The notes: a model not told the origin generated them from the sequence alone. Shown: positions 24,061-63,924, counted from the first letter of the stretch. The stretch: DNA of 64,000 nt from an uncultured Microthrixaceae bacterium (GCA_964450685.1 CAYVDN010000006.1:3532-67531); one strand, 5' to 3'. A program made the numbers and translations.

Positions 24061-24141
24061 CCCGCCCGGCTCCGGGTCTGTACCGACCACCGACCCCCGA
24101 CCTGGAGTCCCGTCACGTACTACGGTCGCCCCCGTTCCGGG

Positions 24142-29200: not shown

Positions 29201-29267
29201 CGGCTTCAGGGCCGGCAGCCAGACGGACGGGACGATGACTCGACAGTCCGAGGAGAGTGACCGATGA
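26235..29267 (+). CDS. Tri-domain protein: N-terminal 12-TM MFS domain fused to LivF-like and LivG-like ABC ATPase domains
   Basis: 1010 aa with a GTGA overlap to the permease gene. Residues 1 to about 445 have 12 predicted TM helices and the MFS motif-A-like IASDRGNRVAIT. NBD1 reads GTNGAGKSTLIRAISG / LSGGQQQMLALA / LLLVDELSMGL. NBD2 reads GQNGAGKTTLLDLICG / LSIGTRRIVEFA / VLLLDEPAAGV. Confidence 0.8.
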   Translation: MSHADRITLLDLRESSRGVVDPRRWGAGLRRPRRSLRAMVGDGPVFPLLVLFGLNAVDELDRTGFGILLPNIRDAFGMSNTGVLTLVGVTALGALAMQMPIAIASDRGNRVAITLVGASAWAVFSVMTGAATTIWMLLVARVGTGIGRAVVDPTHNALLSDWYAVDRRPAVFSFHRAANVLGNFAGPLLAGGLAAAFSWRVPFFVFAVPTVVLVVLGMRLRDPVRGAQERRAAGAGEHVAETAEVPPSFAEAWRLLWKIDVLRRMWYSVPFLAVAIVGFISLAGLLYEEVYRLDELERGYLAAVAEPFQFLGLAVGARLGTRLFLRGPHLIFRLLRGVAFACSALVACFALAPTLPLTIVANIALTTVLAILLPGLFATLSLAIPARARSVGFSIAAWWAIPGLAMLPLIGWVSDTFGIRLGMLVMVPILVVGGLIISTGGSVVERDINDAWRASATRSQALIEREDGRSKLLVVKDLQVGYGQVRILHDIDFEVAEGEVLAVLGTNGAGKSTLIRAISGVTEADFGAVVLDGRDITHAPPNEIASLGVAQVPGGAGTFPSLSVAENLRAAGWQLRRDRAGLAERTDEVLDVFPVLRDRLDEPAANLSGGQQQMLALAMALLSRPKLLLVDELSMGLAPVVVGQLASLVRRVASEGTTVVLVEQSINVALGIATSALFIERGRIRYAGPAHELVEHPELLRAAFLAEGAASVEQRSVVRADRRSPEALELTSVTRRFGGISAVDDVSFAVAPGEIVGLIGQNGAGKTTLLDLICGYQPLDGGHVRIGGVDVSRRSPHERAGAGLGRTFQGGHLFPGLTVTEAVAVALERSTIVRDMINPALRLPAAFDSEAAVMRRVLELLDLFGLDPYRDAFTSDLSIGTRRIVEFACAVAHQPDVLLLDEPAAGVAQRDVEQLGGILSRIRVELGCAMVVIEHDMPLVASVCDRLVALEAGSVIAEGPPGKVLNDPAVVASYLGDDMASVHRSGTGDGFRAGSQTDGTMTRQSEESDR

Positions 29268-46129: not shown

Positions 46130-46238
46130 CACGGGAGAGTCAGAGCACAGGAGAGACACGAATGGCATGAATGGCCCGAACGGCCCATCACCCAGAGTGG
46201 TGGTCAGGGAGTTCTCCCCATGGAACGTGCGGCTAGGT

Positions 46239-46251
46239 TGACGCAGAGTGA
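46239..46251. promoter_or_regulatory. BldD-box-like palindrome upstream of the bldD-like gene
   Basis: TGACGCAGAGTGA fits every fixed position of the Streptomyces BldD box as I recall it, TnACnC(A/T)GnGTnA. It lies 71 nt upstream of ATG 46322. Confidence 0.45.
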
Positions 46252-46321
46252 GATCGCGGGATCGGCCGGGTGGTCGAACGGGCGAGTCGCCCGGACCCAT
46301 CGAGAAGGACCGAGCGGGACA

Positions 46322-46834
46322 ATGAGCGTGGAACTGATCGACGACGACGAGCTGCGTGATGGCCAGTACTCCAAGGCGGTGGGCGAGCGGCTGCGTCACA
46401 TCAGGCGACAGAAGAGGCTGTCCCTGCAGGAGGTCGAGACGATCTCGGCCCACGAGTTCAAGGCGTCGGTGCTCGGCGCCTACGAGCGTGGGGAACGGGC
46501 CATCTCGGTGCCCCGGCTCCAGAGGCTTGCCCGCTTCTACAAGGTGCCCGTGGACCAGCTGCTGCCCGGGGACGACGTCGTCGAGGAGCTTCCGGCCCGA
46601 CGCGATCTCGATGGCGGAGCGAAGATCGACCTGACCCGACTCGAGGGTCTGAACGGAGCCGAGTCCGAGATGCTCTCGCGCTACCTGCGGATGATCCAGG
46701 TGCAGCGACAGGACTTCAACGGCCGTGTGCTCACGATCCGTCGGGACGACATGCGGGCCATCGCATGCATCCTCGGGGTCACCGAGGACGCAGCCGATCG
46801 CCGCCTCGACGAGATGGGCCTGCGCCTCGGCTGA
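46322..46834 (+). CDS. bldD: BldD-like XRE-family developmental regulator with a c-di-GMP binding signature
   Basis: Starts at ATG 46322 (170 aa; Streptomyces BldD is of similar length). The sequence is collinear with remembered S. coelicolor BldD. AVGERLRHIRRQKRLSLQEVE...SVLGAYERGERAISVPRLQRLARFYKVPVDQLLPG aligns with QLGAKLRAIRTQQGLSLHGVE...VVVGSYERGDRAVTVQRLAELADFYGVPVQELLPG. The C-terminal domain has RQD-FNGRVLTI-RRDD, which fits RXD-X8-RXXD. Confidence 0.8.
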   Translation: MSVELIDDDELRDGQYSKAVGERLRHIRRQKRLSLQEVETISAHEFKASVLGAYERGERAISVPRLQRLARFYKVPVDQLLPGDDVVEELPARRDLDGGAKIDLTRLEGLNGAESEMLSRYLRMIQVQRQDFNGRVLTIRRDDMRAIACILGVTEDAADRRLDEMGLRLG

Positions 46835-46896
46835 ATCCATCGTGCGCCTCGGCTGAGGCGCCCGTGTGTTTCGAGTCAGGCCCCGTGGGTCCGGTC

Positions 46897-47811
46897 CTAC
46901 GGGAGCACGATGGTCTGACCGACGTGCAGCAGTGACGGGTCCCCGGGGTCGACCAGTCGATCGCGGTTCTCCTCGACGAGCCGGGCCCAGTAGGTCGCGA
47001 CAGGTTCCGCGTGGCCGCGTTCGGCTACGACGCGTTCGGCGATCGCCCAGAAATGCTCGCCGGGTTCGACCGAGTGCAGGGAAACAGCGGGCGCTGCTGC
47101 TGATGGGTAGGTGGCTACCCCGTCGGTTGATGCTGGGTCGTTGAACTCTGGACCGTTGAACGCTGGGTCATTGGGCACTGGGACAGTCGATGCCGGGTCG
47201 CTGGACAGATCCGGGGTGGATGGATTCGGGGCCGGCGCCCACGGGAGCATCGTTCGCGCAGACGTGGTTGTCGAGGACGTGGGGCTGTCGACCAGGGACT
47301 CGAGTGTGATCGTGCGTGGGTCTGTCGGATTCTCCACGGCTCCGACGCTCGGAATGCTCACCGATGCAGCGGCCACGCTCACAGCTGCTGCCGTCAACCA
47401 GCGGGGCGTCGCACGGCGGGCCAGCACAGCGACCCGACCGCTGTGACTACCTGCGCCAGGCATCGGGCCGTGGACCAGGCCAACCAGGAGATTCAGTCCC
47501 GCGACGATCGTCAAGTAGCCGAGCGTGGCCAACGCGACTACCACGAGCGTCGAACTCACGAGCCCGACAATGTCCCAGGTGGCAGTCGTGGATCCGGCGA
47601 AGCTCTGCCAGTCGAGCCATGGCGGGCGGTTGCCCCAGACCGCCGCCAGTCCGACCGACGAGATCAGCATCGTGGCCAACGCACGCCGTAGTTGGCGACG
47701 TCTCAGGGACCGGGGTGACATATCGGACCTGCGGCCCGGTACCGGTCTGTTCGTGGCGTGGTCCGATCCGAGGCTGGGTCGACGGTACGAGCGGTCCTCG
47801 ATGATGGTCAT
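46897..47811 (-). CDS. Polytopic membrane protein with C-terminal LysM peptidoglycan-binding domain (last gene of the Tad operon)
   Basis: ATG 47811 forms an ATGA overlap with the upstream stop (47808-47811). TM segments include LATMLISSVGLAAVWG and IVGLVSSTLVVVALATLGYLTIVAGLNLLVGLV. A Pro/Ser/Thr-rich linker is followed by the LysM-like HSVEPGEHFWAIAERVV...NRDRLVDPGDPSLLHVGQTIVLP. Confidence 0.65.
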   Translation of the reverse strand: MTIIEDRSYRRPSLGSDHATNRPVPGRRSDMSPRSLRRRQLRRALATMLISSVGLAAVWGNRPPWLDWQSFAGSTTATWDIVGLVSSTLVVVALATLGYLTIVAGLNLLVGLVHGPMPGAGSHSGRVAVLARRATPRWLTAAAVSVAAASVSIPSVGAVENPTDPRTITLESLVDSPTSSTTTSARTMLPWAPAPNPSTPDLSSDPASTVPVPNDPAFNGPEFNDPASTDGVATYPSAAAPAVSLHSVEPGEHFWAIAERVVAERGHAEPVATYWARLVEENRDRLVDPGDPSLLHVGQTIVLP

Positions 47812-49046
47812 GTCTGCTCCTTGGCAACTGGGGACCCTGCGGCGTCGAGCGGGCGGAGTCGAACACATCCGTCAACCTCGTCGACACCGAGCGAGGTCGC
47901 TCCGGGGTAGGTGCCGAGATATCGGGCTGTGGTAGTCGCCCCGGATCCAGGCCACTCGTCGAACGTGAACACCTCGGACGAGGAGGCTCTGAGGAGAACG
48001 ACCTGAGCCGGTCCCCGACAGGTGATCGGAGCGACGACGACATGGTCTCCTGGTTCTCCAGCACTGAAGCGATCGCTCCCGACCGTCACGATGTTGCCCG
48101 AGACGGAGACGTCGTCGGGGCAATCGTCACGGTCAAGGTCCGGGCCGGCACTTGCCCAGGGATTGGCGGTGGGCGAGTGGGCGCATGCCGGTCTGTCGTC
48201 GGACGCGAGTGGCGAAGGGCTGCTCGACTCCACCCGGCCACTGCTCTGGCCGGCGGCGGCCACCGCTCCCCAGGTCAGGCCGAGCACACCGACCCCGACG
48301 GCGGCACCCACCAGCCGGAGAGGTGTCCCACCGAGCGGCGATCGGCCGCCTGCCTTCGCCCCCTGGCCCGGACGAGACGTCGGGTCGCCGATCCGTGGCG
48401 GCGACATTCGTGAGCTCAGGTCAACTGCGAGCTCACGAAGGTCAGCCGCCAGGGCTTCGACTGATCGACAGCCCGCTTCCGGCGAGACCGAGTTCGTTCT
48501 TCCGAGGCCCCGGTGGTAACGACGCACGGCAGAGCGGTACACCCACGATGCCCTCGGACCCCACGTGTCGCCGCGGTGGCGCAGGACGTGCTCGATCAGA
48601 TCCACAAGCTGTTGGAGGTCGGTGAGGGTATCGGGTCCCTCGTCACCAGCGTTGCTGCAGCGAACCCTTGCCGAACCGAGCGAGCAGAGACGAACAGTTC
48701 CTTCCGCGGCGATGACCACGTGCTCAGAGCACAACGCACCATGGGTCCAGCCGGCTGCGTGCAGCTCCGCGACGGCGTCGGCTGTGTCGGCGAGAGCCGT
48801 GAGCAGCTCTGTAGGCGACCGCCCCTGCAGCTGTGATAGGTCGCGGTCGCCTGCGTCGACGGTGACGAGATCGGTCCTGTCATCGGACTCCCGCAACGCG
48901 ACGAGCTCCACCACTGGTAGTCCCCGCATGTGTTCGAGCAGTTCTGCCTCGCGACGCAGATGCTGACGAGAACCTCCTCGGGCACTCTTGGCCACGAGCG
49001 GTGTACCGCCGACGGTGAGCCGGTGGACCCGATTGGCCCCGGTCAT
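47808..49046 (-). CDS. Single-pass membrane protein: cytoplasmic kinase-fold domain with substituted catalytic residues (pseudokinase), plus an extracytoplasmic 4-Cys domain
   Basis: 412 aa with ATGA overlaps at both ends. It keeps a beta3-like Lys (PLVAKSA) and an alphaC-like Glu (REAELLEH). The catalytic loop reads LHAAGWTHGALCSEHVVI, where kinases have HxD....N. The DFG position reads LCSLGSA. TM segment: LRLVGAAVGVGVLGLTWGAVAAAG. Confidence 0.55.
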   Translation of the reverse strand: MTGANRVHRLTVGGTPLVAKSARGGSRQHLRREAELLEHMRGLPVVELVALRESDDRTDLVTVDAGDRDLSQLQGRSPTELLTALADTADAVAELHAAGWTHGALCSEHVVIAAEGTVRLCSLGSARVRCSNAGDEGPDTLTDLQQLVDLIEHVLRHRGDTWGPRASWVYRSAVRRYHRGLGRTNSVSPEAGCRSVEALAADLRELAVDLSSRMSPPRIGDPTSRPGQGAKAGGRSPLGGTPLRLVGAAVGVGVLGLTWGAVAAAGQSSGRVESSSPSPLASDDRPACAHSPTANPWASAGPDLDRDDCPDDVSVSGNIVTVGSDRFSAGEPGDHVVVAPITCRGPAQVVLLRASSSEVFTFDEWPGSGATTTARYLGTYPGATSLGVDEVDGCVRLRPLDAAGSPVAKEQT

Positions 49047-49513
49047 CGGTTGAGCCTGGCGGTAGCAGTGACGACGATCCGCTCGCTGTCCGCGCGACCT
49101 GGAACAGCGCGGAGCATCACGTGGTCGACCAGGAGCTCGATCGTGACAGTCACCGTCGAACCCTCGTCACCGACCCGCACGGTCGGTTCAGACACAAGAT
49201 CTCCGGGGAGGCTGACAGTGCTCAGGTGTGCATCGACCACGCGTCGTGCTCTGCCGGGGTCGATTGTCAGCCCGCCGCTCCGCTGGAGCTCCTCGGTGTC
49301 GATCATCGCCGCGGCATCGTCGGCGGCCGCGGACACCGTCCGATGGGCCGAACGGTGCGCACCGTGCAGGAGAGTCAGGTCGATCGCGATGGTGCCCAGG
49401 CAGATGAGGACGAGCATCATCGCCGGTACGAGCATCAACGCGCTCGCAGTCTCGCCTCCGTGTCGCTCAGTCCAGTGCGCAAGGCGTGGTCGCCGGGTCA
49501 TGGCTGGGTCCAC
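49043..49513 (-). CDS. TadE/TadG-like minor pilin / pilus assembly protein
   Basis: 156 aa. The N-terminus ERHGGETASALMLVPAMMLVLICLGTIAIDL has a TadE-type hydrophobic segment. GTG 49513 or ATG 49501 are possible starts. It overlaps the upstream gene by 47 or 35 nt. Confidence 0.6.
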   Translation of the reverse strand: MDPAMTRRPRLAHWTERHGGETASALMLVPAMMLVLICLGTIAIDLTLLHGAHRSAHRTVSAAADDAAAMIDTEELQRSGGLTIDPGRARRVVDAHLSTVSLPGDLVSEPTVRVGDEGSTVTVTIELLVDHVMLRAVPGRADSERIVVTATARLNR

Positions 49514-49985
49514 TGGTCATCTCCCTGTGTGGGTCGACGAGCTCCCGGTGCGTGACTCGCACAGGTCGGGTCCCGAGGTCGTCGAGGAATGGGAGGCGTG
49601 CAGCGGGAGCTTCTGCCTCGAGGGTGACGGTCGCCGGTTCACAGGGCCCGAACCGGTTCGGGTCGGGGGCTGTGAACCGGATGTCTGCCAGGCGAGTGCC
49701 ACGTCGCAGCAGGACCTCTGAAGCAGCTCGTTGTCCGGCTGATGCTGCCTCCCGGGGTGTAGAGGCTTCCGTGTAGCTGCGCATGTACTCGCGTGCCGCA
49801 GCGTCCATGGCGGCGCGGGTGTCGATGATCGACCAGATGTTCAGTACCGCTAGCGAGCCGGCGACCAGGATGAACAGGCCGAAGAGGATTCCCTCGGCGC
49901 CGCCGACGAAGCCGCCCTGACAGCGGCGGCGAGCTGATGGATGTGGTGCCATGTTGCGGCATCCGTCGCCGGCCGTCCCGTTCAC
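49467..49985 (-). CDS. TadE-like protein
   Basis: 172 aa with a GTGA overlap to the upstream stop (49982-49985). N-terminal hydrophobic segment: GGAEGILFGLFILVAGSLAVLNIWSIIDTRAAMDAAAREY. Confidence 0.5.
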   Translation of the reverse strand: MNGTAGDGCRNMAPHPSARRRCQGGFVGGAEGILFGLFILVAGSLAVLNIWSIIDTRAAMDAAAREYMRSYTEASTPREAASAGQRAASEVLLRRGTRLADIRFTAPDPNRFGPCEPATVTLEAEAPAARLPFLDDLGTRPVRVTHRELVDPHREMTSGPSHDPATTPCALD

Positions 49986-50422
49986 GGTCTCTCCACCCTG
50001 ACCGAGATGGTTCGATCCAGAGCACCGACGACCGGGCCTCCGTCGATCATCGCTGGTAGCAGCGAGACACCCCTGGATCGCAGCCGGAGGACGACACGGT
50101 CGTCGTCCAACGACTCGATGTCGAGTTGCACGTCGCCGCCGTGCTCGCCGAGCGCGTCCCTGGCATCATCGAGGACCTGTGCTGCCACAGTGGCGCGGTC
50201 ATAGCCGACAGGTGCCGTCGCGATGTCGCGTGCTGCGTCGTAGGCGACAGCATCGACGGTGCTTCGTGCCCACAGGCCGATGCAGATGTTCGACGCGAGC
50301 CCGACCGACGCCGCAACGGCGGCGACACCGAACACCGTGCTCAGGAGCCCTGACCCGCGCTCGTCGCGACGAGAACAGCGCCTGGGTACACCCCGCCGGG
50401 TCGAGCTCCGGGTGCCGTTCAT
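49982..50422 (-). CDS. TadE-like protein (actinobacterial ERGS-type N-terminus)
   Basis: Trimmed to ATG 50422, which forms an ATGA overlap with the flp-like stop. RDERGSGLLSTVFGVAAVAASVGLASNI resembles the DRGSA-type start of the Rv3654c-family TadE-like proteins. Confidence 0.6.
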   Translation of the reverse strand: MNGTRSSTRRGVPRRCSRRDERGSGLLSTVFGVAAVAASVGLASNICIGLWARSTVDAVAYDAARDIATAPVGYDRATVAAQVLDDARDALGEHGGDVQLDIESLDDDRVVLRLRSRGVSLLPAMIDGGPVVGALDRTISVRVERP

Positions 50423-50658
50423 CCGCCGATCTGCTCCACCTGGGCGCGGGTCCGGTCGGTAGCCGAGTTCATCATCGAGTCGAACCCGGTCCAAAGACCG
50501 ATGCCGAGGAAGGCGACTATCAGGACTGCAATCGCGGTCGAGATGACCCCCTCGCCCCGCTCGTTGCACAGCGGAGCAGGGGCAGGCTTTGCCGCTCGGT
50601 GAGCAGGCTCCGTGTGTGCGGGCTCGGACAGGACTCGTGAGTCGGTGTTGTTCTCCAT
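50419..50658 (-). CDS. flp: Flp/DUF4244-like prepilin candidate
   Basis: 79 aa. CCAGGAGGTCATC precedes ATG 50658 (AGGAGG Shine-Dalgarno). A 34-aa charged leader ends in NERG, followed by the hydrophobic EGVISTAIAVLIVAFLGIGLW. The gene sits between tadC and the tadE-like genes. Confidence 0.55.
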   Translation of the reverse strand: MENNTDSRVLSEPAHTEPAHRAAKPAPAPLCNERGEGVISTAIAVLIVAFLGIGLWTGFDSMMNSATDRTRAQVEQIGG

Positions 50659-50692
50659 GATGACCTCCTGGTCGTTGTTCTTCTTGTCGGGT

Positions 50693-51586
50693 TCACCCGC
50701 CGGCGACCTGCTCCATGGCGGAGGTGAAAGGGACGGCGAGGAAGATGAGGCCCGGTACGAGGGTCGCGACGGTGACCGGGATCCAGACCAGTTGTGAGCG
50801 CCGCTCGATGGCCTCGATCAAGTCGCGGTGTGCCGCAGCCCGGGCGCTCCGTGCTTCCTGGGACACGAGCTGGCCCAGGTCGCCCGCATCTCCGTGCAGT
50901 CGGAGGACAGAGACCAGGCGGCCGATTGCGTCGACTCCGCTGTCATCGGCCCATTCGGCAAGCGCTGCGTTGGTGCTCAGGCCCTGGCGGATCCTCCGGC
51001 TGACTGAACGCAGGTCCGATGCGATCGCCCCGTCGCCGCGTTGCGCCAGGCGGTTCAGCGCGCCCGGAACCGAGTATCCGGCCGACAGGAGCAGACCGAG
51101 CTGCTCGGTGACCACCGGAAGCTCGTCGCGTCGACGCGAGCGCCGCTCCTCGACCGCGGAGTCCAATCGGCGTTCCTCGATCAGCGCAGCCAGGACGGGC
51201 AGGCCGAGGATCGCGACGACTGCGACGACGGGCTTGGGGGTGACAGCGACGCTGAAAGCTGCTCCTGCGACGAACGTGACACCGGCGAACGTGGCCTGCC
51301 GCATCCGGAACGCGGCAGGGTCCAGGGACCAGCCAGCCTGGTCGAGCCTGGTGGACAGCAGCTGGCGCACGCCGAGCAAGGATGATGCTCGCTCCCCCCA
51401 TCGTTCGATTCCGGGAGCGAGGATGGCCCTCATCGAGTCCGAGGTGCGGTGTGTCGTCGCGTGGGGGCGGTGGCGCCGATATGGCGCCAGCCGATCCGCA
51501 AGACGCGAGCGTCGGAACCAGGGTGCCTCGCACAGGAGGAGGGTGATCCCGGCAGCGAGAAACGCCCATACGATAGGAAGGGTCAT
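50693..51586 (-). CDS. tadC: Type II secretion system F-family membrane protein (TadC-like)
   Basis: Trimmed to ATG 51586 (ATGA overlap with the tadB stop). It has 3-4 TM helices flanking a T2SSF-type cytoplasmic domain (DELPVVTEQLGLLLSAGYSVPGAL). Confidence 0.75.
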   Translation of the reverse strand: MTLPIVWAFLAAGITLLLCEAPWFRRSRLADRLAPYRRHRPHATTHRTSDSMRAILAPGIERWGERASSLLGVRQLLSTRLDQAGWSLDPAAFRMRQATFAGVTFVAGAAFSVAVTPKPVVAVVAILGLPVLAALIEERRLDSAVEERRSRRRDELPVVTEQLGLLLSAGYSVPGALNRLAQRGDGAIASDLRSVSRRIRQGLSTNAALAEWADDSGVDAIGRLVSVLRLHGDAGDLGQLVSQEARSARAAAHRDLIEAIERRSQLVWIPVTVATLVPGLIFLAVPFTSAMEQVAGG

Positions 51587-52449
51587 CGGTCGAACACCCG
51601 TCTCTGCTCGGGAAGTCGCATGACACGGCTTGCCCACCACCAGCACGCGGCCATGACGAGCAGCCCGACTGCCACCAGCGCCTGCCCGACCGGTGTCTGG
51701 TAGGCCGCCCTCCCGTCGCCGACGCTCAGCCCGGCGAGGGCCATTCCCGCCGGTACGAGCACCACGAACACCCTGGCGAAGCGCGCGCCGGACTGGCGTG
51801 CCTCGGCCTCCCTGCGTCCCGCCAGATCCTGACGACGATCGTCTGCGAGAGCGGCGAGGCGGGAGTCGAGGTCGCCGCCGACATCAGCGGCGACGAGCAG
51901 TGTCTCACAGGTTGCGTCAGCCGTCGGGTCCGCGAGTTGTCGCTTCAGTTCTGCGACGGTGCGAGGGAAGTCGGTCGTGAGCGACCACTCCCGTTGTGCC
52001 GAGATGAAGGCTCCGTGGAGCTCCTCGGGTCCTCGGAGCCCGACCTCGAGGAGCGCCTGGGGGATCGACCGGCCGGCCGACCCGGTCAGGACTCTGAGCT
52101 CCTCGATGAGGCGCGGCCAAGCGGCCCTCGCTGCGTGTCGTCTGGCGGTGCGTCGAGACCTCCAGACCGTCGCCGGGACGATCGCACCGGCTCCCGCAAC
52201 GAGTAGCGCGGGCAGGCCGGGGCCGAACACGACCAGAGCAGGGAGTGAGCTCGTAGCACCGACCAGAAGCGATGCGAGCAGGAACTGCACCGGGCTCACC
52301 CCTTCGAGCCCTGCCTGGTCCAGGATCAGTCGGGCGCGTCCTGCAGCCATCGAGCGCACATCGGTCTGATTCCAACGGGAACGGGGTTCACTCCAGACCA
52401 GCAGGTAGGTGCCTGTTGCTGCGAGGGCGGCGAGCAGGAGGCCGGTCAT
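51583..52449 (-). CDS. tadB: Type II secretion system F-family membrane protein (TadB-like)
   Basis: 288 aa with an ATGA overlap to the tadA stop. T2SSF pattern: WPRLIEELRVLTGSAGRSIPQAL, plus terminal TM helices. Confidence 0.75.
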   Translation of the reverse strand: MTGLLLAALAATGTYLLVWSEPRSRWNQTDVRSMAAGRARLILDQAGLEGVSPVQFLLASLLVGATSSLPALVVFGPGLPALLVAGAGAIVPATVWRSRRTARRHAARAAWPRLIEELRVLTGSAGRSIPQALLEVGLRGPEELHGAFISAQREWSLTTDFPRTVAELKRQLADPTADATCETLLVAADVGGDLDSRLAALADDRRQDLAGRREAEARQSGARFARVFVVLVPAGMALAGLSVGDGRAAYQTPVGQALVAVGLLVMAACWWWASRVMRLPEQRRVFDR

Positions 52450-53756
52450 GATCGTCCTACGGCTTCGCCGAGCAGGAGTCGTCCGTCGAAACCTGCTCTC
52501 TGGAGCCGTTCGAGCGCCCGCATCGGCATCAGTCCTGTCGGGCGCAGCGGTCCGTCGATCCGTGGACGCTCGAACAGCTCTGTCGTGGTGAACTGCACGG
52601 CGTCCGCGCCCGCAGTCAGGTCCTCCACCGCCAGTACCGAGGTGACGCGTGGACCGTTCGGACCTCGCTCGGAGTGGACGACCAGGTCGATCGCGTCGCT
52701 GACCAGGCTGTTGAGCGCGGCAACAGGCAATTGATGGGAATCGGAGAGCTGGGCGATGAACCTCAATCTCGTCAAGGCCTGCTTCGATGACGAAGCATGA
52801 ATGGTCGTGTAGCCGGTAACGCCGGACGACAGGGTCAACAGCAGTGGCATCGCTTCGCGGTCGCGGACCTCGCCGACTATCGCCACGTCCGGGGCCATTC
52901 GCAGGAATCCGGCGACCAGTCGTCGCAGATCGACCTCGGCGCGGTCGGCGCGGGCGGGCCGGGTCTGGAGGCTGGCGATGTTCGCGAGCGGTACGTCGGC
53001 TTCGAAGACCTCCTCGGCGATCACGACTCTCAGGGACGGTTCGAGTTCCGCTGCGCAGCAGGACAGCAGCGTCGTCTTGCCGGCTCCGGGTGCGCCGGCG
53101 AACACGATGCTCATGCGGGCCCGCACGCAGGCGACCAGGAAGGTGGCGGCCTGCGGGGAAAGCGTCTCTCGTCGCACGAGCTCGTCCAGCGAGCTGATTG
53201 CCACGCCGGTGAACTTGCGGATGTTGACCATCAGGTGATTCCCGCGGCTCAGGTCACCGTGCACGATGTGGAGCCGCGATCCGTCGTCGAGCTGTGCGTC
53301 CTGGAGTCCCTCCGTGGGGTCGAGCTTGCGATGTGACGAAGCAGCATCCTCGAGGAGCTTGGTCAGGGTCCTGGCCACGTGGTCGTCGTCGTGGAACACC
53401 TCGTGGTGGTAGCGGCTACCACCGGAGTGCCTGCGCACGAAGATCTCGGTGGGGGCGTTGATCATGATCTCCCACACGTCGTCGTCGTCGAGCAGGTCCG
53501 TCAACGGCCCGTACCGTGCGAGATTCCGGAACGCCCTTTCCGCGATCCCCTCGGGATCGTTCAACCCATCCCGGATGAGACCTCGGCGGTGATCTGCCTG
53601 GTGTTCGTCGATCACGTGGTCGATCAAGCGGCGAAGTCGTACCTGGCCCCCTGGCTCATCGACGTCGAGGAGCTCACGGGTGGCTCGGAGCTGCACCTCG
53701 TGCTCGACTCGCTGAAGCGGCGAAGGTGCGGACGGGGCGGTCGTGGTGGCCTTCAT
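52446..53756 (-). CDS. tadA: CpaF/TadA-type secretion ATPase
   Basis: Trimmed from the 622-aa track ORF to ATG 53756 (436 aa; ATGA overlap with the tadZ stop). Walker A is FAGAPGAGKTTLL, Walker B is RVVIAEEVFE, and it has IVGEVRDREA and TGYTTIHASS. The discarded N-terminal extension is Arg/Pro-rich antisense sequence of tadZ. Confidence 0.9.
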   Translation of the reverse strand: MKATTTAPSAPSPLQRVEHEVQLRATRELLDVDEPGGQVRLRRLIDHVIDEHQADHRRGLIRDGLNDPEGIAERAFRNLARYGPLTDLLDDDDVWEIMINAPTEIFVRRHSGGSRYHHEVFHDDDHVARTLTKLLEDAASSHRKLDPTEGLQDAQLDDGSRLHIVHGDLSRGNHLMVNIRKFTGVAISSLDELVRRETLSPQAATFLVACVRARMSIVFAGAPGAGKTTLLSCCAAELEPSLRVVIAEEVFEADVPLANIASLQTRPARADRAEVDLRRLVAGFLRMAPDVAIVGEVRDREAMPLLLTLSSGVTGYTTIHASSSKQALTRLRFIAQLSDSHQLPVAALNSLVSDAIDLVVHSERGPNGPRVTSVLAVEDLTAGADAVQFTTTELFERPRIDGPLRPTGLMPMRALERLQRAGFDGRLLLGEAVGRS

Positions 53757-55111
53757 GCGACGTCCCTCCTGTTGCGCGCGAAGAGCTGCACCCGGTCGTC
53801 GATGTCGGTGCCGAGCTCTCCCGGACGGACCCGCTCGGCGACCTCGCCGCCCTGCGTCGGTCGAGGGGGGAGCGAGTCGGCGAGAGCGAGCACGTGACGC
53901 CCGAGAGGATCGACGAGGCACGAAGGCAACGGCGCTACTCGGTCGTGGACCTCGTCCATGGCTCGAGCCCGGCTCAGCATGACCGGGTCGGCGATGTCGG
54001 CGTGACGTTCGCTGTCGAACAGCTTCGACACCTGGCGGCGCAGCAGTGTTCGTCGAGAGGCCGAGCGTGGCGAGCTCGAGATCACGGGTACGAGCCGGTG
54101 TGCAGGTACCCCGGCGTCGAGCAGGTCCTCTGTGAGAGTGGTGAGTCCGTGCAGGCCGTGAAGGTCGCCGCGGGCGACGACGAGAACCAGGTGGGCGCGG
54201 TCGACTGCTGCGAGGTTCACGGAGTGGCGGTCCTCCACGTCCGATGATCCAGTGTCCGCCTGATTGTCGAGCTCTGCGTCGAAGTCGACGATCACCGTGT
54301 CGAACGCGCGGCACATGGCATCAAGTGCTGCATCCGCGGACCTGCGTCGGAGGGTCACCCAGTCGGAGATCCGGCGGCGCCCCAGCAGCAGCGAGTAGTG
54401 ACGGGTCGGAACCGGGAAGGTGATTCTCCTCACCTCGTCGGGATCGAGCCTGTCGGAGCGATGTGACTCCACGAGCTCGGGAAGCCCGGGGACTACGTCG
54501 CCGATGTGGTGATACATCGCAAGTGACCCGCGTGCGCAGCCGTCGACCAGCGCGACGGTCCCCCTGCTGGTCGATTCAGCAGGTTCGTCCGGTGCGTATC
54601 GCCACCGGGTGGTTGCAGCGGCTTGGGCCAGGGCCATCGCTGCGGAGCTCGCCCCGCCGCCGCCCGGGCCCGTCACCGCCACGAGCAGGCCCTCACCGCG
54701 CACGGACTCACTCAGGACTGATCGGCCCGGGCGGCGGGCAGGTCCGACCGGACGTGCGTGGCGCTTCAGGGCCTCGACGAGCGTCGCGGGGTCCAGACGG
54801 TCGTCGATCACCGCCGCACAGCCAAGAGCTTCCCAGTCGCGGTGAACGGATCCGTCCGTGACCACCAGGCTGGGGGTGCCGGCACCGGCGGCGGCATCTA
54901 TGAGGTCGCGGTCGATCCCGGGGCCCCTCGCGTCGAGCAGCAGAGCGGAGACACGGCGGCCTGTGCCGAGCACAGCAGCAGCTTCGGTGGCGGTCAGACA
55001 GCTCACGAACTCGACGGGAGCAGCACCGTCGGTCGACCAGCGCGCCAGGTCGGCCACCCACCGTGCCCGAGCCCTGGTAACCCCGACGACGACGAACCGG
55101 TCGGAGCTCAT
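53753..55111 (-). CDS. tadZ: CpaE/TadZ-like (Ssd-like) ParA/MinD-fold protein with receiver-like N-domain and lysine-less P-loop
   Basis: 452 aa. The N-terminal flavodoxin-like region reads FVVVGV...SALLLDARGPGIDRDLI. The central LLVAVTGPGGGGASSAAMALA sits where MinD/ParA have GxxGxGK(S/T). ATGA overlaps at both ends. Confidence 0.7.
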   Translation of the reverse strand: MSSDRFVVVGVTRARARWVADLARWSTDGAAPVEFVSCLTATEAAAVLGTGRRVSALLLDARGPGIDRDLIDAAAGAGTPSLVVTDGSVHRDWEALGCAAVIDDRLDPATLVEALKRHARPVGPARRPGRSVLSESVRGEGLLVAVTGPGGGGASSAAMALAQAAATTRWRYAPDEPAESTSRGTVALVDGCARGSLAMYHHIGDVVPGLPELVESHRSDRLDPDEVRRITFPVPTRHYSLLLGRRRISDWVTLRRRSADAALDAMCRAFDTVIVDFDAELDNQADTGSSDVEDRHSVNLAAVDRAHLVLVVARGDLHGLHGLTTLTEDLLDAGVPAHRLVPVISSSPRSASRRTLLRRQVSKLFDSERHADIADPVMLSRARAMDEVHDRVAPLPSCLVDPLGRHVLALADSLPPRPTQGGEVAERVRPGELGTDIDDRVQLFARNRRDVA

Positions 55112-55824
55112 CGCCCGAGCTCCGACTCGTTCGGCCCGGGAGCAGGGAGTACCAGAGTCACGTCAGTACGTACCGCGGCGTCGACGATCGCTTCGGCAGT
55201 CGCCACGTCAGCAACTCCAACTCGGACCCGAATGCCTCCGTCCACCCCGATGGCGTCGTCGTCATCGCCCTGGACGGAGGTGACCAGCACCCCGGTCGCC
55301 ACCGTCGAAGTGCCGGTCGAGTCAGGGTCGGTCGAGAGCACGGTGACTCGGTCACCTGCCTCCAGGGCCCCGTGCATCGCTGCGGCAGGGGGCAGGTCCA
55401 GCACCAATTCGTTGGTCGCATCCGGACCGAACCGACCGGACTCGAACACGTCGCCGTCGCGGACCAGGTCCATCGGGCGCAGCGCGACGCGGGTGGTGCG
55501 GCCGATCAGGTCATCGGCATCGGCCTTGTCGATTGTGTTCAGATCGTCCGGTATCTCCGCTGTGACGGTTCCGAGATCAGCTGCGCTCAGAGGCGAACCG
55601 GCCGGAACCTCTCGAACTGCGACCACATAGGAAGTGGATGGTGGAGCAGTCGCCGCGCGCTGGGAGACGAGAACACCCACCGCGGCAGTGGCGACAAGAG
55701 CCCCTCCGAGAACGGCTCGACTCGACGGGCGCCTCGAGACGCCTGACCGGCGTGACCGCGCCCGTGACGAAATCGGCCCGCCCGGGCCGGGGTGGTCGAT
55801 CTGTCGGTCGGCTGTCTCTGCCAC
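55108..55824 (-). CDS. cpaB: SAF-domain Flp pilus assembly protein CpaB/RcpC-like (first gene of the operon)
   Basis: 238 aa with a GTG start. N-terminal TM is VLGGALVATAAVGVLV. The SAF-like segment is YVVAVREVPAGSPLSAADL. The CpaB-like C-terminus reads GDRVTVLST...VRVRVGVADVATAEAIV. Confidence 0.65.
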   Translation of the reverse strand: MAETADRQIDHPGPGGPISSRARSRRSGVSRRPSSRAVLGGALVATAAVGVLVSQRAATAPPSTSYVVAVREVPAGSPLSAADLGTVTAEIPDDLNTIDKADADDLIGRTTRVALRPMDLVRDGDVFESGRFGPDATNELVLDLPPAAAMHGALEAGDRVTVLSTDPDSTGTSTVATGVLVTSVQGDDDDAIGVDGGIRVRVGVADVATAEAIVDAAVRTDVTLVLPAPGPNESELGR

Positions 55825-55858
55825 GTCCTGTTCCCCCTCTAGGTGATGGCGAGAAGGT

Positions 55859-55935
55859 ATGAAACGACATGATAAGTGTCAAGGGGTAGGTACGAACCCT
55901 GAAAGCGCCTTCAAGTGTCGTCAGGGCATGAAACG
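55859..55935. promoter_or_regulatory. Mirror-arranged repeat pair in the divergent tad/HTH intergenic region
   Basis: The left arm is ATGAAACG (55859-55866), N7, then AAGTGTCA (55874-55881). The right arm is AAGTGTCG (55913-55920), N7, then ATGAAACG (55928-55935). The region is visibly less GC-rich than its surroundings. Confidence 0.35.
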
Positions 55936-55955: not shown

Positions 55956-56198
55956 GTGTCCTACGTGAGCACCGCGGACATCGAGTGGCTGAACACGAAG
56001 GAGAGCGCACGGCGCCTCGGCATCACGCCTCGAACGCTGTATCGCTTCATCGATGACGGGAAGATCCCGGCATATCGCCTCGGTCGGGTGATCCGGCTGA
56101 AGGAGAGCGAGGTCGCCGACTTCATCGAGCGCAGCCGCATCGTTCCGGGCACGCTCGAGTCGGACGTGATCGACGAAGAAGAGCTCGACCAGACCTGA
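55956..56198 (+). CDS. Excisionase/MerR-like HTH_17 DNA-binding protein (stand-alone DNA-binding domain, BldC-type architecture)
   Basis: 80 aa. WLNTKESARRLGITPRTLYRFIDDGKIPAYRLGRVIRLKESEVADFIE is a typical Xis-family helix-turn-helix. GTG 55956 or GTG 55965 are possible starts. Confidence 0.75.
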   Translation: MSYVSTADIEWLNTKESARRLGITPRTLYRFIDDGKIPAYRLGRVIRLKESEVADFIERSRIVPGTLESDVIDEEELDQT

Positions 56199-56209: not shown

Positions 56210-56725
56210 TCAGCCTCGCCGGACGCCCGCCGCGCCGATCGCCGTCGGTTCGACGACCAGCAGTGAGCCCGCGTCGTCGGAGATGGCGAGGGTCTCGCCG
56301 AACGCAACCGGGATACCGGCGATCTTTCGGCCCGAGGTGAGCGCCACGACAGTGGGCAGTTCCATGTCGACCAGGTCGGCGAGCACATCCGTGAGACAGG
56401 TCGATGCTCGTTCGTCCCAGGCGCTGATGCGGGTTCCGGCCGATACGCCGACCGCTGTGATCGAGTCGAGCGACACGAACCAGGTGGTTGTACCCGCCAG
56501 GATCTCGACCACATCGACACCGACCGCGACGACGGTTCCGCTCAGTGGATCCTGCCAGCAGGTGGCGTGGACGATTGCGGTGCGTTCCAGCGCGCCGCAG
56601 AGGGTGTCGGTGATCGATCTGGACTCCGCAGCGCGACGCTCGAGCGATTCGCGTCGTCGCCGGTCACGCGCCGCGCTGTCGCGCCGCGCTCGTGCCGCGA
56701 TCGACTCGACCGGTTCGTCGGCCAC
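56210..56725 (-). CDS. Hypothetical protein (basic coiled N-terminus, no recognised domain)
   Basis: Trimmed to GTG 56725, with AGAGGGCGAG upstream, so that it does not overlap phoH. Third-codon-position G+C in this frame looks very high by eye, consistent with genuine coding. Confidence 0.5.
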   Translation of the reverse strand: MADEPVESIAARARRDSAARDRRRRESLERRAAESRSITDTLCGALERTAIVHATCWQDPLSGTVVAVGVDVVEILAGTTTWFVSLDSITAVGVSAGTRISAWDERASTCLTDVLADLVDMELPTVVALTSGRKIAGIPVAFGETLAISDDAGSLLVVEPTAIGAAGVRRG

Positions 56726-56777
56726 TGGAATCTCGCCCTCTTGGTCACCCGGCTTCACCACTACACTGTGCTCTGCA

Positions 56778-57794
56778 ATGCAACCTCTCGACATCTCCGG
56801 TGCGCCAGACGCGTCCGGTGGCCCAAGCGGCACCGCCACCGACGACACACTCCGGACTCTCGTTCGGGTTCCCGGCAATCACCTGATGGCCGACCTCCTC
56901 GGCCCGCGCGACGAGTTGTTGGACCAGATCGAGGACGCGTTCGCCGGTACCTCGATCACGGTGCGAGGCAATGAGATCTCCATCGTCGGTCGTGACGCGA
57001 CCCTTGTGGGCAGGTTGTTCGCGGAGCTGGTGGTCCTGCTCGAGGCGGGTCACCGACTCGAGCCTGCGTCGATTCGTCGAACCATCGACATGGTCAAGGC
57101 CGACGAGTCTCCCTCGGAGGTGCTCACCGCCGAGTTGTTGCGCACATCCCGAGGCGGTCGGATACGACCCAAGACCTCGGGCCAGAAGCGCTACGTCGAC
57201 GCCATCGGCGCCAACACGATCACCTTCGGCATCGGCCCTGCAGGTACGGGCAAGTCGTGGTTGGCGGTCGCCATGGCCGTGCAGTCCCTCCAGGCCAAGG
57301 AGGTCGAGCGCATCGTCCTGACCCGTCCGGCTGTAGAGGCGGGTGAGCGGCTGGGCTTCCTGCCCGGCGATCTGATGGCCAAGGTCGACCCCTACCTGCG
57401 GCCCCTGTACGACGCGCTGAACGACATGACCGGGGCCGAAGGCGCCCAGAAGCTGCTCGAGCGTGGCGTGGTCGAGGTTGCGCCGCTGGCGTTCATGCGC
57501 GGTCGCACGCTCAACAACTCGTTCATCATCCTCGACGAGGCGCAGAACACCACACCAGAGCAGATGAAGATGTTCCTGACCCGTATCGGGTTCGGCTCCA
57601 AAGCAGTCATCACCGGGGACACGACCCAGATCGACGTGCCCGGTGGCCGCTCAGGGCTGGCTCGCGTGGAGTCGATCCTCTCAGGCATAGACGGCCTGGC
57701 GTTCGTCCGACTCACCGGCCGGGACGTGGTACGACACAGGATCGTCCAGGAGATCGTCGACGCTTACGAGAGGCATGGCGAGGTCTCGACGTGA
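56778..57794 (+). CDS. phoH: PhoH-like ATPase (YbeZ)
   Basis: Trimmed from the 503-aa track ORF to ATG 56778. Motifs: GPAGTGKSWLAVAMAV, RIVLTRPAVEAGERLGFLPGDL, FIILDEAQNTT, VITGDTTQIDVP. Confidence 0.9.
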   Translation: MQPLDISGAPDASGGPSGTATDDTLRTLVRVPGNHLMADLLGPRDELLDQIEDAFAGTSITVRGNEISIVGRDATLVGRLFAELVVLLEAGHRLEPASIRRTIDMVKADESPSEVLTAELLRTSRGGRIRPKTSGQKRYVDAIGANTITFGIGPAGTGKSWLAVAMAVQSLQAKEVERIVLTRPAVEAGERLGFLPGDLMAKVDPYLRPLYDALNDMTGAEGAQKLLERGVVEVAPLAFMRGRTLNNSFIILDEAQNTTPEQMKMFLTRIGFGSKAVITGDTTQIDVPGGRSGLARVESILSGIDGLAFVRLTGRDVVRHRIVQEIVDAYERHGEVST

Positions 57795-63112: not shown

Positions 63113-63787
63113 TCAGGCGGTGACCACAACCGTCTTGGCGGCCAGGTCGAACGGCGTCTGGCGCAGCGGATTGCTGAAGAGGTTGACCAGCGCCCAGATC
63201 ATCAGGCCGAGGCTCAGCAGGCTGCCGATGCAGGGCACGAGGCTCACGAGGTTCGGCAGCCAACGCATGAAGGCAGGCCCCCAGCCAGGGATCTGTCCGT
63301 CGCTGTGGCGGACCACCTTGACCTTCATGGCCATCTTGCCCGGGGTCTGACCCTTGATCGCGATGAAGGCGACCTCGTATGCGACCTGGCCGACCGTCGC
63401 GACGATCATGAACATGAACATCCCGCCGATGAACAGCCCGCTCGCGGCATCAGAACCGGAGCTCGATGCCCCAAGACCGATCAGCAGGAAGTACATGGGA
63501 ACGAGGACTACCGCCATGATCAGCCAGTCGATGATCCGGGCGATTATGCGCTTGCCCGGCTCTGCAAGTGCGACCTGGTTCGGCACACCCGCGCCGTACT
63601 GGTAGGGCTGCGCGGGGATCTGTCCGCCTCCCGGGTAGCCGGCACCGTAGGGCTGGGGTGACCCGTAGGGCTGTGGTGTGCCATAGGGCTGGGGCGACCC
63701 GTAGGGCTGCGGCGACCCGTAGGGCTGCTGGTTGCCGGGCTGGGGCTGGTCGCCACCGGGTGGCGGTGGTGGGTACGAGTCGGTCAT
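63113..63787 (-). CDS. RDD-family membrane protein with (QPYGxP)n N-terminal tail
   Basis: Trimmed to ATG 63787 (MTDSYPPPPPGG...). The RDD-type core reads GKRIIARIIDWLIMAVVLVP...FIAIKGQTPGKMAMKVKVV. Confidence 0.75.
   Translation of the reverse strand: MTDSYPPPPPGGDQPQPGNQQPYGSPQPYGSPQPYGTPQPYGSPQPYGAGYPGGGQIPAQPYQYGAGVPNQVALAEPGKRIIARIIDWLIMAVVLVPMYFLLIGLGASSSGSDAASGLFIGGMFMFMIVATVGQVAYEVAFIAIKGQTPGKMAMKVKVVRHSDGQIPGWGPAFMRWLPNLVSLVPCIGSLLSLGLMIWALVNLFSNPLRQTPFDLAAKTVVVTA
63645..63734 (-). repeat. In-frame tandem repeat, 5 x 18 bp, encoding QPYG(S/T)P units of the RDD protein tail
   Basis: Plus-strand units of the form CCGTAGGGCTGnGGnGnn start at 63645, 63663, 63681, 63699 and 63717. Confidence 0.8.
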
Positions 63788-63924
63788 CGGAGTCCAGTGC
63801 GTGTCGAGAGGCGCTACCGCGATTTGCACGGTATCGGCCGTGGGTGGGGACGCGGCGGATCTATGCAATCACCCGGTCGATCACGGTTCGGGCTGCGTCG
63901 ACGGTGCCGGTAGCGTGTCGATCC

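Follow-up and report, generated by a model that had tools for sequence, protein, structure and literature searches.

A pseudokinase and a LysM-like membrane protein at the end of a Tad-type pilus operon of Acidimicrobiales, candidates for a wall-anchoring accessory complex

Tad machines of single-membrane bacteria look minimal and are described without RcpC, and how the assembly complex of single-membrane type IV pili holds together, or copes with a thick cell wall, is regarded as an open question (PMC6916266). In other Gram-positive envelope machines, EssB/YukC of type VIIb secretion and TraF of pIP501 type IV secretion act as single-pass membrane pseudokinase hubs (PMC3526858, PMC9600267, PMC13037476, PMC12599244), and a periplasmic LysM-like domain is found in FimV/HubP (PMC12918733), with TsaP as a further protein in this literature (PMC8811193). 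Here we analyse a window of 64,000 nucleotides from an uncultured bacterium of the Microthrixaceae (Acidimicrobiales; GCA_964450685.1, CAYVDN010000006.1:3532-67531), which holds an operon of 11 open reading frames (ORFs) on the minus strand, running from 55824 to 46897. The genes encode, in order, a CpaB-like protein, a TadZ-like protein, TadA, TadB, TadC, a small pilin-like protein and three TadE-like proteins, and the operon closes with KIN, the gene of a kinase-fold membrane protein, and LYSM, the gene of a LysM-like membrane protein. We propose, largely by analogy and with a probability of roughly 55%, that this terminal pair encodes an accessory membrane complex, so far undescribed, of a single-membrane Tad machine, which would anchor or scaffold the pilus in the wall. 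The known machines of this kind have no wall-binding part, and KIN and LYSM are two widely conserved candidates for one.

KIN and LYSM are tied both to one another and to operons of this type. In a TadA-based survey with one genome per species, we collected 80 Acidimicrobiales loci, whose TadA proteins are 65-79% identical to that of the window, and mapped the window proteins and the KIN and LYSM profiles onto them; the genomes are labelled Microthrixaceae, Iamiaceae, Aquihabitans, Rhabdothermincola, Acidimicrobiaceae and isolate IMCC26207, with labels taken from metagenome-assembled genomes. Sixty-one loci carried enough downstream sequence to be informative, and in 49 of them KIN and/or LYSM lies directly after tadE3: as two separate genes in 40 loci, as a single KIN-LYSM fusion gene in four (L034, L052, L055 and L065), as KIN followed by the contig end in three, and as LYSM only in two. 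Neither gene follows tadE3 in 12 loci. On a midpoint-rooted TadA tree, pair-bearing loci occur on both sides of the root, the absences fall in two to three clades, and the fusions appear at two places. The same picture emerged when we started from KIN. Seven homologues (34-63% alignment identity), at nine loci, all have tadE3 before them and a LYSM homologue behind; the KIN profile retrieved eight true homologues from metagenomes, 8/8 directly after tadE3; and the distant representatives whose context was looked up (L102, L103 and L104, three of approximately 521 KIN clusters) lie, 3/3, between tadE3 and a LYSM-family gene. The coupling of the two terminal genes to tad genes, suggested by an earlier reading of this DNA from its sequence alone (hereafter the sequence-only reading), therefore holds in both directions, at 49/61 from TadA and at 7/7, 8/8 and 3/3 from KIN. 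Nor are the homologues scattered over unrelated loci, since every KIN family member with an examined context sits in a tad operon, apart from two loci (L010 and L011) that we return to below.

The operon occurs in different chromosomal surroundings. The flanks of two distant representatives (L102 and L103) are unrelated to those of the window: one has chorismate-binding and carboxyltransferase genes beside the operon, the other FtsK and RNase J (the contig of the third, L104, is too short for flanks). The pair follows tadE3 despite different flanks at L012, L022-L029, L064, L102 and L103. Inherited gene order alone cannot, therefore, explain the linkage, and the fusions and overlapping reading frames link KIN and LYSM to each other as well as to the operon. 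Two of the 12 loci without the pair after tadE3 (L083 and L087) carry a split operon. In L083 (1-3260), tadE2, tadE3 and KIN have moved behind CNNM on the other strand, cpaB to tadE1 having stayed in place, so that KIN remains with the pseudopilin genes; the sister locus L087 likewise stops after tadE1. A rearrangement of a different sort is found in L007 (300-6100), where cpaB and tadZ have given way to the gene of a large serine recombinase, to small HTH genes and to a PvuII-type restriction-modification pair, and tadA is cut to 176 aa; in this locus a mobile island has disrupted the pilus operon.

The junctions within the operon point in the same direction, provided that they are read against the habits of the genome. 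Seven 4-nt ATGA start/stop overlaps on the minus strand (55108, 53753, 52446, 51583, 50419, 49043 and 47808) and a single 4-nt GTGA overlap (49982) connect the genes, tadE2 and tadE3 overlap by 47 nt (from GTG 49513) or 35 nt (from ATG 49501), and the sole intergenic gap, of 34 nt before the pilin-like gene, bears an AGGAGG 6 nt upstream of ATG 50658. All of these had been listed by the sequence-only reading and were found where it placed them. Overlaps of 4 nt are common in this genome, and ybeY/CNNM and phoH/ybeY also overlap in relatives, so the chain by itself is ordinary. What goes beyond chance is the conservation of the overlaps, with KIN running into LYSM in 40 of 49 loci and tadE3 into KIN in 24 of 49. 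The earlier claim that the terminal pair is locked into the operon is thus sound in so far as the overlaps are real and conserved in relatives, but the chain alone is unremarkable here. A terminator scan found no terminator-like site on the minus strand within the operon. The GC content at third codon positions (GC3) is 0.71-0.80 across all 11 genes and 0.76-0.85 in the flanking genes; a recent horizontal insertion was considered and ruled out, because the composition resembles that of the flanks and the site is shared by most of the loci recovered across the order.

KIN encodes a pseudokinase, as the sequence-only reading had called it. The AlphaFold (AF2) model has a mean predicted local distance difference test (pLDDT) score of 81.6, and its N-terminal domain retrieves IRAK4, LCK and CDK2 in Foldseek at E ~2e-8 with a probability of 1.0. 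The kinase fold is retained, and the catalytic Asp residues are gone family-wide: in an alignment of 167 homologues, which includes representatives at <=50% identity, Asp occupies the HRD position in six sequences and the DFG position in one. The catalytic loop of the window protein has the sequence H-G-A-L-C-S-E-H, with HRD changed to HGA and His109 at the Asn position, and the DFG position reads S-L-G, from which a very short activation segment of about 14 residues leads to the next helix. KIN consequently lacks the HRD Asp, the catalytic-loop Asn and the DFG Asp of an active Hanks-type Ser/Thr kinase. Other positions are strongly conserved, including the β3 Lys (149 of 155 non-gap sequences), the αC Glu (157 of 164), the HRD His, His102 (167/167), and His at the catalytic Asn position, His109 (166/167), and the protein may still hold a nucleotide. 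The outer domain, modelled alone, reaches a pLDDT of 86.8, and its Foldseek matches are to β-propeller blades at non-significant values (E >= 0.15); FG-GAP-like DxDxDG motifs can be seen in it, a reading that is unconfirmed.

LYSM is predicted to combine membrane segments with a C-terminal LysM-like domain. Two membrane helices were called in a hydropathy scan, and a third hydrophobic segment is probable from the sequence; the positive-inside pattern fits a N-terminus in the cytoplasm and would place the LysM-like domain outside the membrane. Both halves of the LysM motif align to the LysM domains of SafA and of chitinase (xTVxPGEHFWxIA and NPDLLxPGQxLxLP), and a precomputed PF01476 match exists for four of 15 LYSM homologues. 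The label 'LysM membrane protein' given by the sequence-only reading is borne out for the membrane protein, but the domain itself is only LysM-like and falls below the Pfam threshold.

KIN and LYSM are two large uncharacterised accessory families on a Tad-kind operon. An exhaustive profile search placed at least 521 cluster representatives (at 50% identity) in the KIN family at E <= 1e-30, and 1780 at E <= 1e-10; a word-indexed homologue search under-sampled both families, with 30 matches for KIN and 15 for LYSM, to which the LYSM profile added two. Homologues are named 'hypothetical' in their sources, with one 'Bud32' label. Scans against Pfam, NCBIfam and PADLOC gave no assignment for KIN, LYSM or the TadZ-like protein past weak generic matches, and in the literature searched we found no description of a pseudokinase or LysM protein linked to Tad, nor of tad loci from Acidimicrobiia or Microthrix. 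With curated cutoffs unreached and no describing paper found, the earlier view that the pair is not a described Tad accessory family agrees with our results. At least one carrier is in culture, strain IMCC26207 (locus L016).

We propose a model in which KIN and LYSM form one membrane complex. The LysM-like domain would lie outside the membrane and bind peptidoglycan, and the pseudokinase domain would serve as a non-catalytic docking hub at the cytoplasmic face, in contact with the platform or the ATPase, so that together the two proteins would fasten the pilus machine in the thick wall and keep it aligned. Such a role would be analogous to that of the pseudokinases EssB/YukC and TraF, and to that of FimV and TsaP, the LysM proteins of type IV pili in double-membrane bacteria. 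The naturally fused variants indicate a functional, and probably a physical, link between the two proteins. Since these fusions attach the pseudokinase to the N-terminus of LYSM, KIN probably docks on the cytoplasmic N-terminal tail of LYSM in the two-gene form. The role of 'wall-spanning or signalling adaptor' that the sequence-only reading had offered for the pair is one that we likewise infer by analogy. A bolder form of the anchoring model, which we put forward only tentatively and also by analogy, is that the pair is the missing wall-anchoring or alignment subcomplex of single-membrane Tad pili, and KIN a third independent membrane-pseudokinase hub after EssB and TraF. If this were true, it would point to a general design rule for Gram-positive envelope machines, and the fusions would be the bacterial equivalent of the LysM receptor pseudokinases of plants.

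Several observations weigh against a dedicated anchoring function. Apart from the two split operons, approximately ten related tad operons have neither gene, and in the two of them with identifiable downstream ORFs (L037 and L063) the operon stops with tadE3 and housekeeping genes follow; some machines can therefore do without the pair, which is an accessory. In L010 and L011, KIN-like and LYSM-like genes are separated by 1.4 kb and tad genes are absent for 10 kb around, so the pair may have a role that is not tied to pili, and the set found there may be a pilus-independent version of it. That set (L010:7016-10936, and also L011) comprises a 528-aa KIN-like pseudokinase that shares with KIN the GDWDCDG-type motif of the outer domain, an uncharacterised 425-aa membrane protein predicted to have four helices, and P0045 of the LYSM family. 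The LysM-like domain of the window protein scores 17.1 bits against a Pfam cutoff of 20.9 for PF01476, and the LYSM profile reaches solved LysM domains at E 0.14, which is not significant by itself. No sequence similarity of KIN to EssB, TraF or MviN was detected: a search of solved structures with the KIN profile returned faint kinases only, and EssB, YukC, TraF and MviN were not among the matches to E 10. Finally, with its Lys and Glu retained and two His residues invariant, KIN may still bind a nucleotide or have an atypical activity, and either would speak for signalling.

A signalling function is the alternative that survives best, although we consider it unlikely. KIN and LYSM would then make up a receptor-like module, in which the LysM-like domain and the outer domain of KIN sense the wall or muropeptides and the pseudokinase switches pilus assembly; the switch could work by nucleotide binding, or by phosphorylation through a true Ser/Thr kinase followed by recruitment of a partner, as in mycobacterial MviN. 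On this view, the KIN-LYSM fusions would resemble, in bacteria, NFR5 and other LysM receptor pseudokinases of plants. Approximately 96% of homologues keep the β3 Lys and αC Glu, which, with His102 and His109, suggests a preserved nucleotide pocket, and the order of pseudokinase, membrane helices and LysM in the fusions suits a receptor for which MviN (PMC12599244) and the plant LysM pseudokinases (PMC11572979) offer precedents. An accessory regulator might also be dispensable in some operons, as the pair is. Yet the gene tables returned for the loci list no FHA-domain protein, phosphatase or active kinase, the activation segment is reduced to its few residues, and the tight place of the genes behind the pseudopilin genes, even in the split operon, suits a part of the machine better. 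Because of the short activation segment, the lack of such partners in the gene tables and the way the genes cling to the pseudopilin end, we place the structural reading somewhat above signalling.

It is improbable that the pair serves general wall remodelling or envelope organisation and is only loosely associated with the pilus, for instance by recruiting a hydrolase or marking a site. The joint occurrence of KIN-like and LYSM-like genes away from tad genes in L010 and L011 would fit such a role, as would the wall contact that a LysM-like domain implies, but all other family members examined lie in tad operons, the start/stop overlap with tadE3 recurs in 24 of 49 loci, and we noted no hydrolase gene in the gene tables of the KIN loci. 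Least probable, and largely refuted by the context survey, is that the two genes are unrelated passengers kept by inherited gene order, as the hrcA-dnaJ-rsmE ... phoH-ybeY frame shared by many loci might suggest but the fusion genes and the loci with different flanks contradict, or that the locus is an anti-phage defence system and not a pilus, a candidate (MADS/BREX kinases, MAD1) resting on matches of KIN to defence kinases and of the HTH_17 protein to MAD1 that we dropped because they are generic and far below cutoffs (19 versus 460 bits; 31.5 versus 80 bits).

The core of the operon is of the Tad (type IVc) kind, although divergent, with an atypical pilin and a weak TadZ (Table 1). Among the gene identities proposed by the sequence-only reading, TadA, TadB and TadC are solid and the CpaB-, TadZ- and TadE-like assignments are weak, but the 'flp-like' product falls outside PF04964. 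A Pfam scan gave this small protein no Flp-family match, its RG-EGVISTAIAVLI motif is without the Glu-Tyr of the Flp G/XXXXEY processing motif, and it can be described as pilin-like in size, position and hydrophobic segment only. The three TadE-like proteins have in common an R-G motif at the N-terminal end and, after it, a hydrophobic helix; taken singly they scarcely match any family, the best value being E 0.052. In a set of 30 homologues (24 TadE-like and six pilin-like), PF13400 is matched by four, PF07811 by three and PF09977 by two, counts that may overlap and were not separated by sequence, and DUF6133 is matched weakly by five, with a best E of 1.1e-5. The CpaB-like homologue in L102 shows weak SAF and RcpC matches. 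In agreement with the sequence-only reading, none of the three high-GC3 ORFs of the 64-kb window with at least four predicted membrane helices was recognised as a prepilin peptidase gene; this enzyme may be encoded elsewhere in the genome, by analogy with Bifidobacterium breve (PMC6916266). One of the ORFs checked is an RDD family membrane protein with five predicted helices (63116-63868, minus strand).

Table 1. Features of the operon and its neighbourhood, in coordinates of the 64-kb window
Feature	Position	Strand	Evidence
KIN, single-pass membrane pseudokinase, 412 aa	47808..49046	-	AF2 model, Foldseek, motif counts, helix prediction
KIN, cytoplasmic kinase-fold domain	aa 1-~215, 48402-49046	-	AF2 and Foldseek
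KIN, membrane helix	aa 245-263, 48258-48314	-	helix prediction; sits in low-confidence linker of model
KIN, all-beta outer domain, nine strands	aa ~300-410, 47817-48149	-	AF2 model
LYSM, membrane protein, 304 aa	46897..47811	-	basic N-terminal tail, ~3 hydrophobic segments, Pro/Ser/Thr-rich linker, LysM-like C-terminus
LYSM, C-terminal LysM-like domain	aa 246-304, 46900-47076	-	PF01476 sub-threshold, profile alignment
CpaB/RcpC-like, SAF domain, one membrane helix (aa 37-55)	55108..55824	-	SAF 22 bits (cutoff 21); TIGR03177 E 4.5e-9, sub-cutoff
TadZ/Ssd-like, weak assignment	53753..55111	-	TIGR03815 E 0.015 only, without Pfam match; cpaB-tadA position conserved
TadA/CpaF-type secretion ATPase	52446..53756	-	PF00437 94.4 bits (cutoff 24.9); TIGR03819 174 bits (cutoff 373)
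TadB-like platform protein	51583..52449	-	PF00482 27.7 bits (cutoff 25.2)
TadC-like platform protein	50693..51586	-	PF00482 39.8 bits (cutoff 25.2)
Small pilin-like protein, 79 aa	50419..50658	-	conserved RG-EGVISTAIAVLI hydrophobic segment; AGGAGG 6 nt upstream
TadE-like pseudopilin 1	49982..50422	-	PF07811 E 0.052; conserved ERG-xGxL and hydrophobic helix
TadE-like pseudopilin 2	49467..49985	-	conserved N-terminal motif, position
TadE-like pseudopilin 3	49043..49513 (start 49513 or 49501)	-	conserved N-terminal motif, position
Unknown protein, ~185-194 aa, conserved, between HTH_17 gene and phoH	56210..56794 (starts 56794, 56761 or 56758)	-	homologue at position in 26/104 fetched loci
HTH_17 / excisionase-family DNA-binding protein, divergent from cpaB	55956..56198	+	PF12728 56.9 bits; TIGR01764 52 bits
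Promoter-like TTGACA-N17-TACCTT upstream of cpaB	55854..55882	-	read from sequence
BldD-like regulator with BldD C-terminal domain, convergent neighbour of operon	46220..46834	+	PF21179 62, HTH_31 36.6, HTH_3 34.5 bits; NF050110 141 bits (cutoff 250)
GC-rich hairpin between convergent bldD-like and LYSM ends	46844..46861		T-run on + strand only

The block is set into a backbone of hrcA-dnaJ-rsmE ... phoH-ybeY-CNNM. Its placement between rsmE and phoH was given correctly by the sequence-only reading, which nevertheless missed the BldD-like, HTH_17 and ~185-aa genes located there. The HTH_17 gene accompanies the tad operon at other chromosomal sites too (L012, L050, L063 and L066), is absent from L102, and probably encodes a regulator of the operon. 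A TTGAC[AT]-N16-19-TAnnnT element is kept in the corresponding spacer of 17 related loci, and the promoter-like element of the window, TTGACA-N17-TACCTT, was not called by a generic promoter scan. The spacer between cpaB and the HTH_17 gene holds three TTTCA repeats, and no inverted repeat was found in it. Pfam, NCBIfam and PADLOC scans gave no match for the ~185-aa protein, whose gene is overlapped on the opposite strand by a 503-aa 'phoH' frame (56283-57794, plus strand); this frame is probably over-extended, its real start being likely at 56778 or 56886. At the other end of the operon, the BldD-like gene comes after LYSM in 35 of 104 fetched loci, and the hairpin at 46844-46861 is a possible shared terminator. 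Elsewhere in the window, on the plus strand, 24061-26235 is a very long stop-free frame that matches the BPD_transp_2 permease twice and has 17 predicted membrane helices, and 26214-29264, also very long, combines an MFS_1 domain with two ABC_tran ATPase domains in a single frame; these may represent a fused transporter of an unusual kind, or neighbouring genes joined in error by stop-to-stop reading.

Among described systems, the Tad loci of Bifidobacterium breve (tad2003) and Micrococcus luteus (tad/com) are built like the one described here from TadZ, TadA, TadB, TadC, a small pilin and TadE-like proteins, lack a secretin, and have their prepilin peptidase outside the locus (PMC6916266, PMC4322843). 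Compared with them, the window operon adds a CpaB/RcpC-like SAF protein, a component reported as 'missing' (PMC6916266), together with a third TadE-like gene, KIN, LYSM and a divergent HTH_17 gene, and its pilin is without the Flp family signature. The Rv3654c-Rv3660c cluster of Mycobacterium tuberculosis (TIGR03815-TIGR03819; PMC9531140) shares with it the kinds of genes, their order and the phylum. The scores against this helicase/secretion neighbourhood are 174 versus a cutoff of 373 bits for TIGR03819 and, for the TadZ-like protein, 14.4 versus 154 bits for TIGR03815, and we noted no helicase among the genes tabulated for homologous loci in the KIN look-ups; what the sequence-only reading took for a likeness to that TIGRFAM neighbourhood thus comes down to resemblance. 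To our knowledge, no pseudokinase or LysM genes have been described in the mycobacterial cluster.

A role of LysM is also recognised in TsaP. Like LYSM, both TsaP and FimV/HubP are accessory proteins of type IV pili or type II secretion that are associated with the membrane and carry a domain of the peptidoglycan-binding LysM type. Unlike it, they belong to double-membrane bacteria, where they serve largely in secretin assembly or polar placement, and they are unrelated to LYSM in sequence and architecture; the window locus has no secretin, and the LysM-like domain of LYSM is divergent with a longer insert.

For KIN, an actinobacterial comparison is provided by the pseudokinase of MviN (MurJ) and the ActPs3 group (PMC12599244), in which a deleted activation loop is likewise followed by a membrane helix and an outer domain, with a link to the cell wall. 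The MviN pseudokinase, in contrast to KIN, no longer has its ATP-binding residues and forms one protein with a lipid II flippase, and no sequence match between KIN and MviN exists at E <= 10. Among ActPs1-3, GLW, CP1, DYD and DLHK (PMC12599244), ActPs3, from Actinobacteria, with its activation-loop deletion and C-terminal membrane helix, comes nearest to KIN, by description only, and has lost all motifs, whereas KIN keeps the Lys and the Glu. EssB/YukC and TraF parallel KIN in architecture, with an N-terminal cytoplasmic pseudokinase of short activation segment, one membrane helix, an outer domain, and a gene located in the operon of the machine. They serve machines of a different type from the Tad system of KIN; EssB has lost all the motifs of which KIN retains the β3 Lys and αC Glu (PMC12599244), and its outer domain is helical (PMC3694306), whereas that of KIN is all-beta. 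Homology to EssB, YukC or TraF was not indicated by the top 50 Foldseek matches of KIN, which are canonical eukaryotic-type kinases, and the resemblance of KIN to EssB, TraF and MviN would be one of working, by analogy only. Few bacterial pseudokinases are tied to a defined machine, and KIN extends this short list by a large family that lacks annotation.

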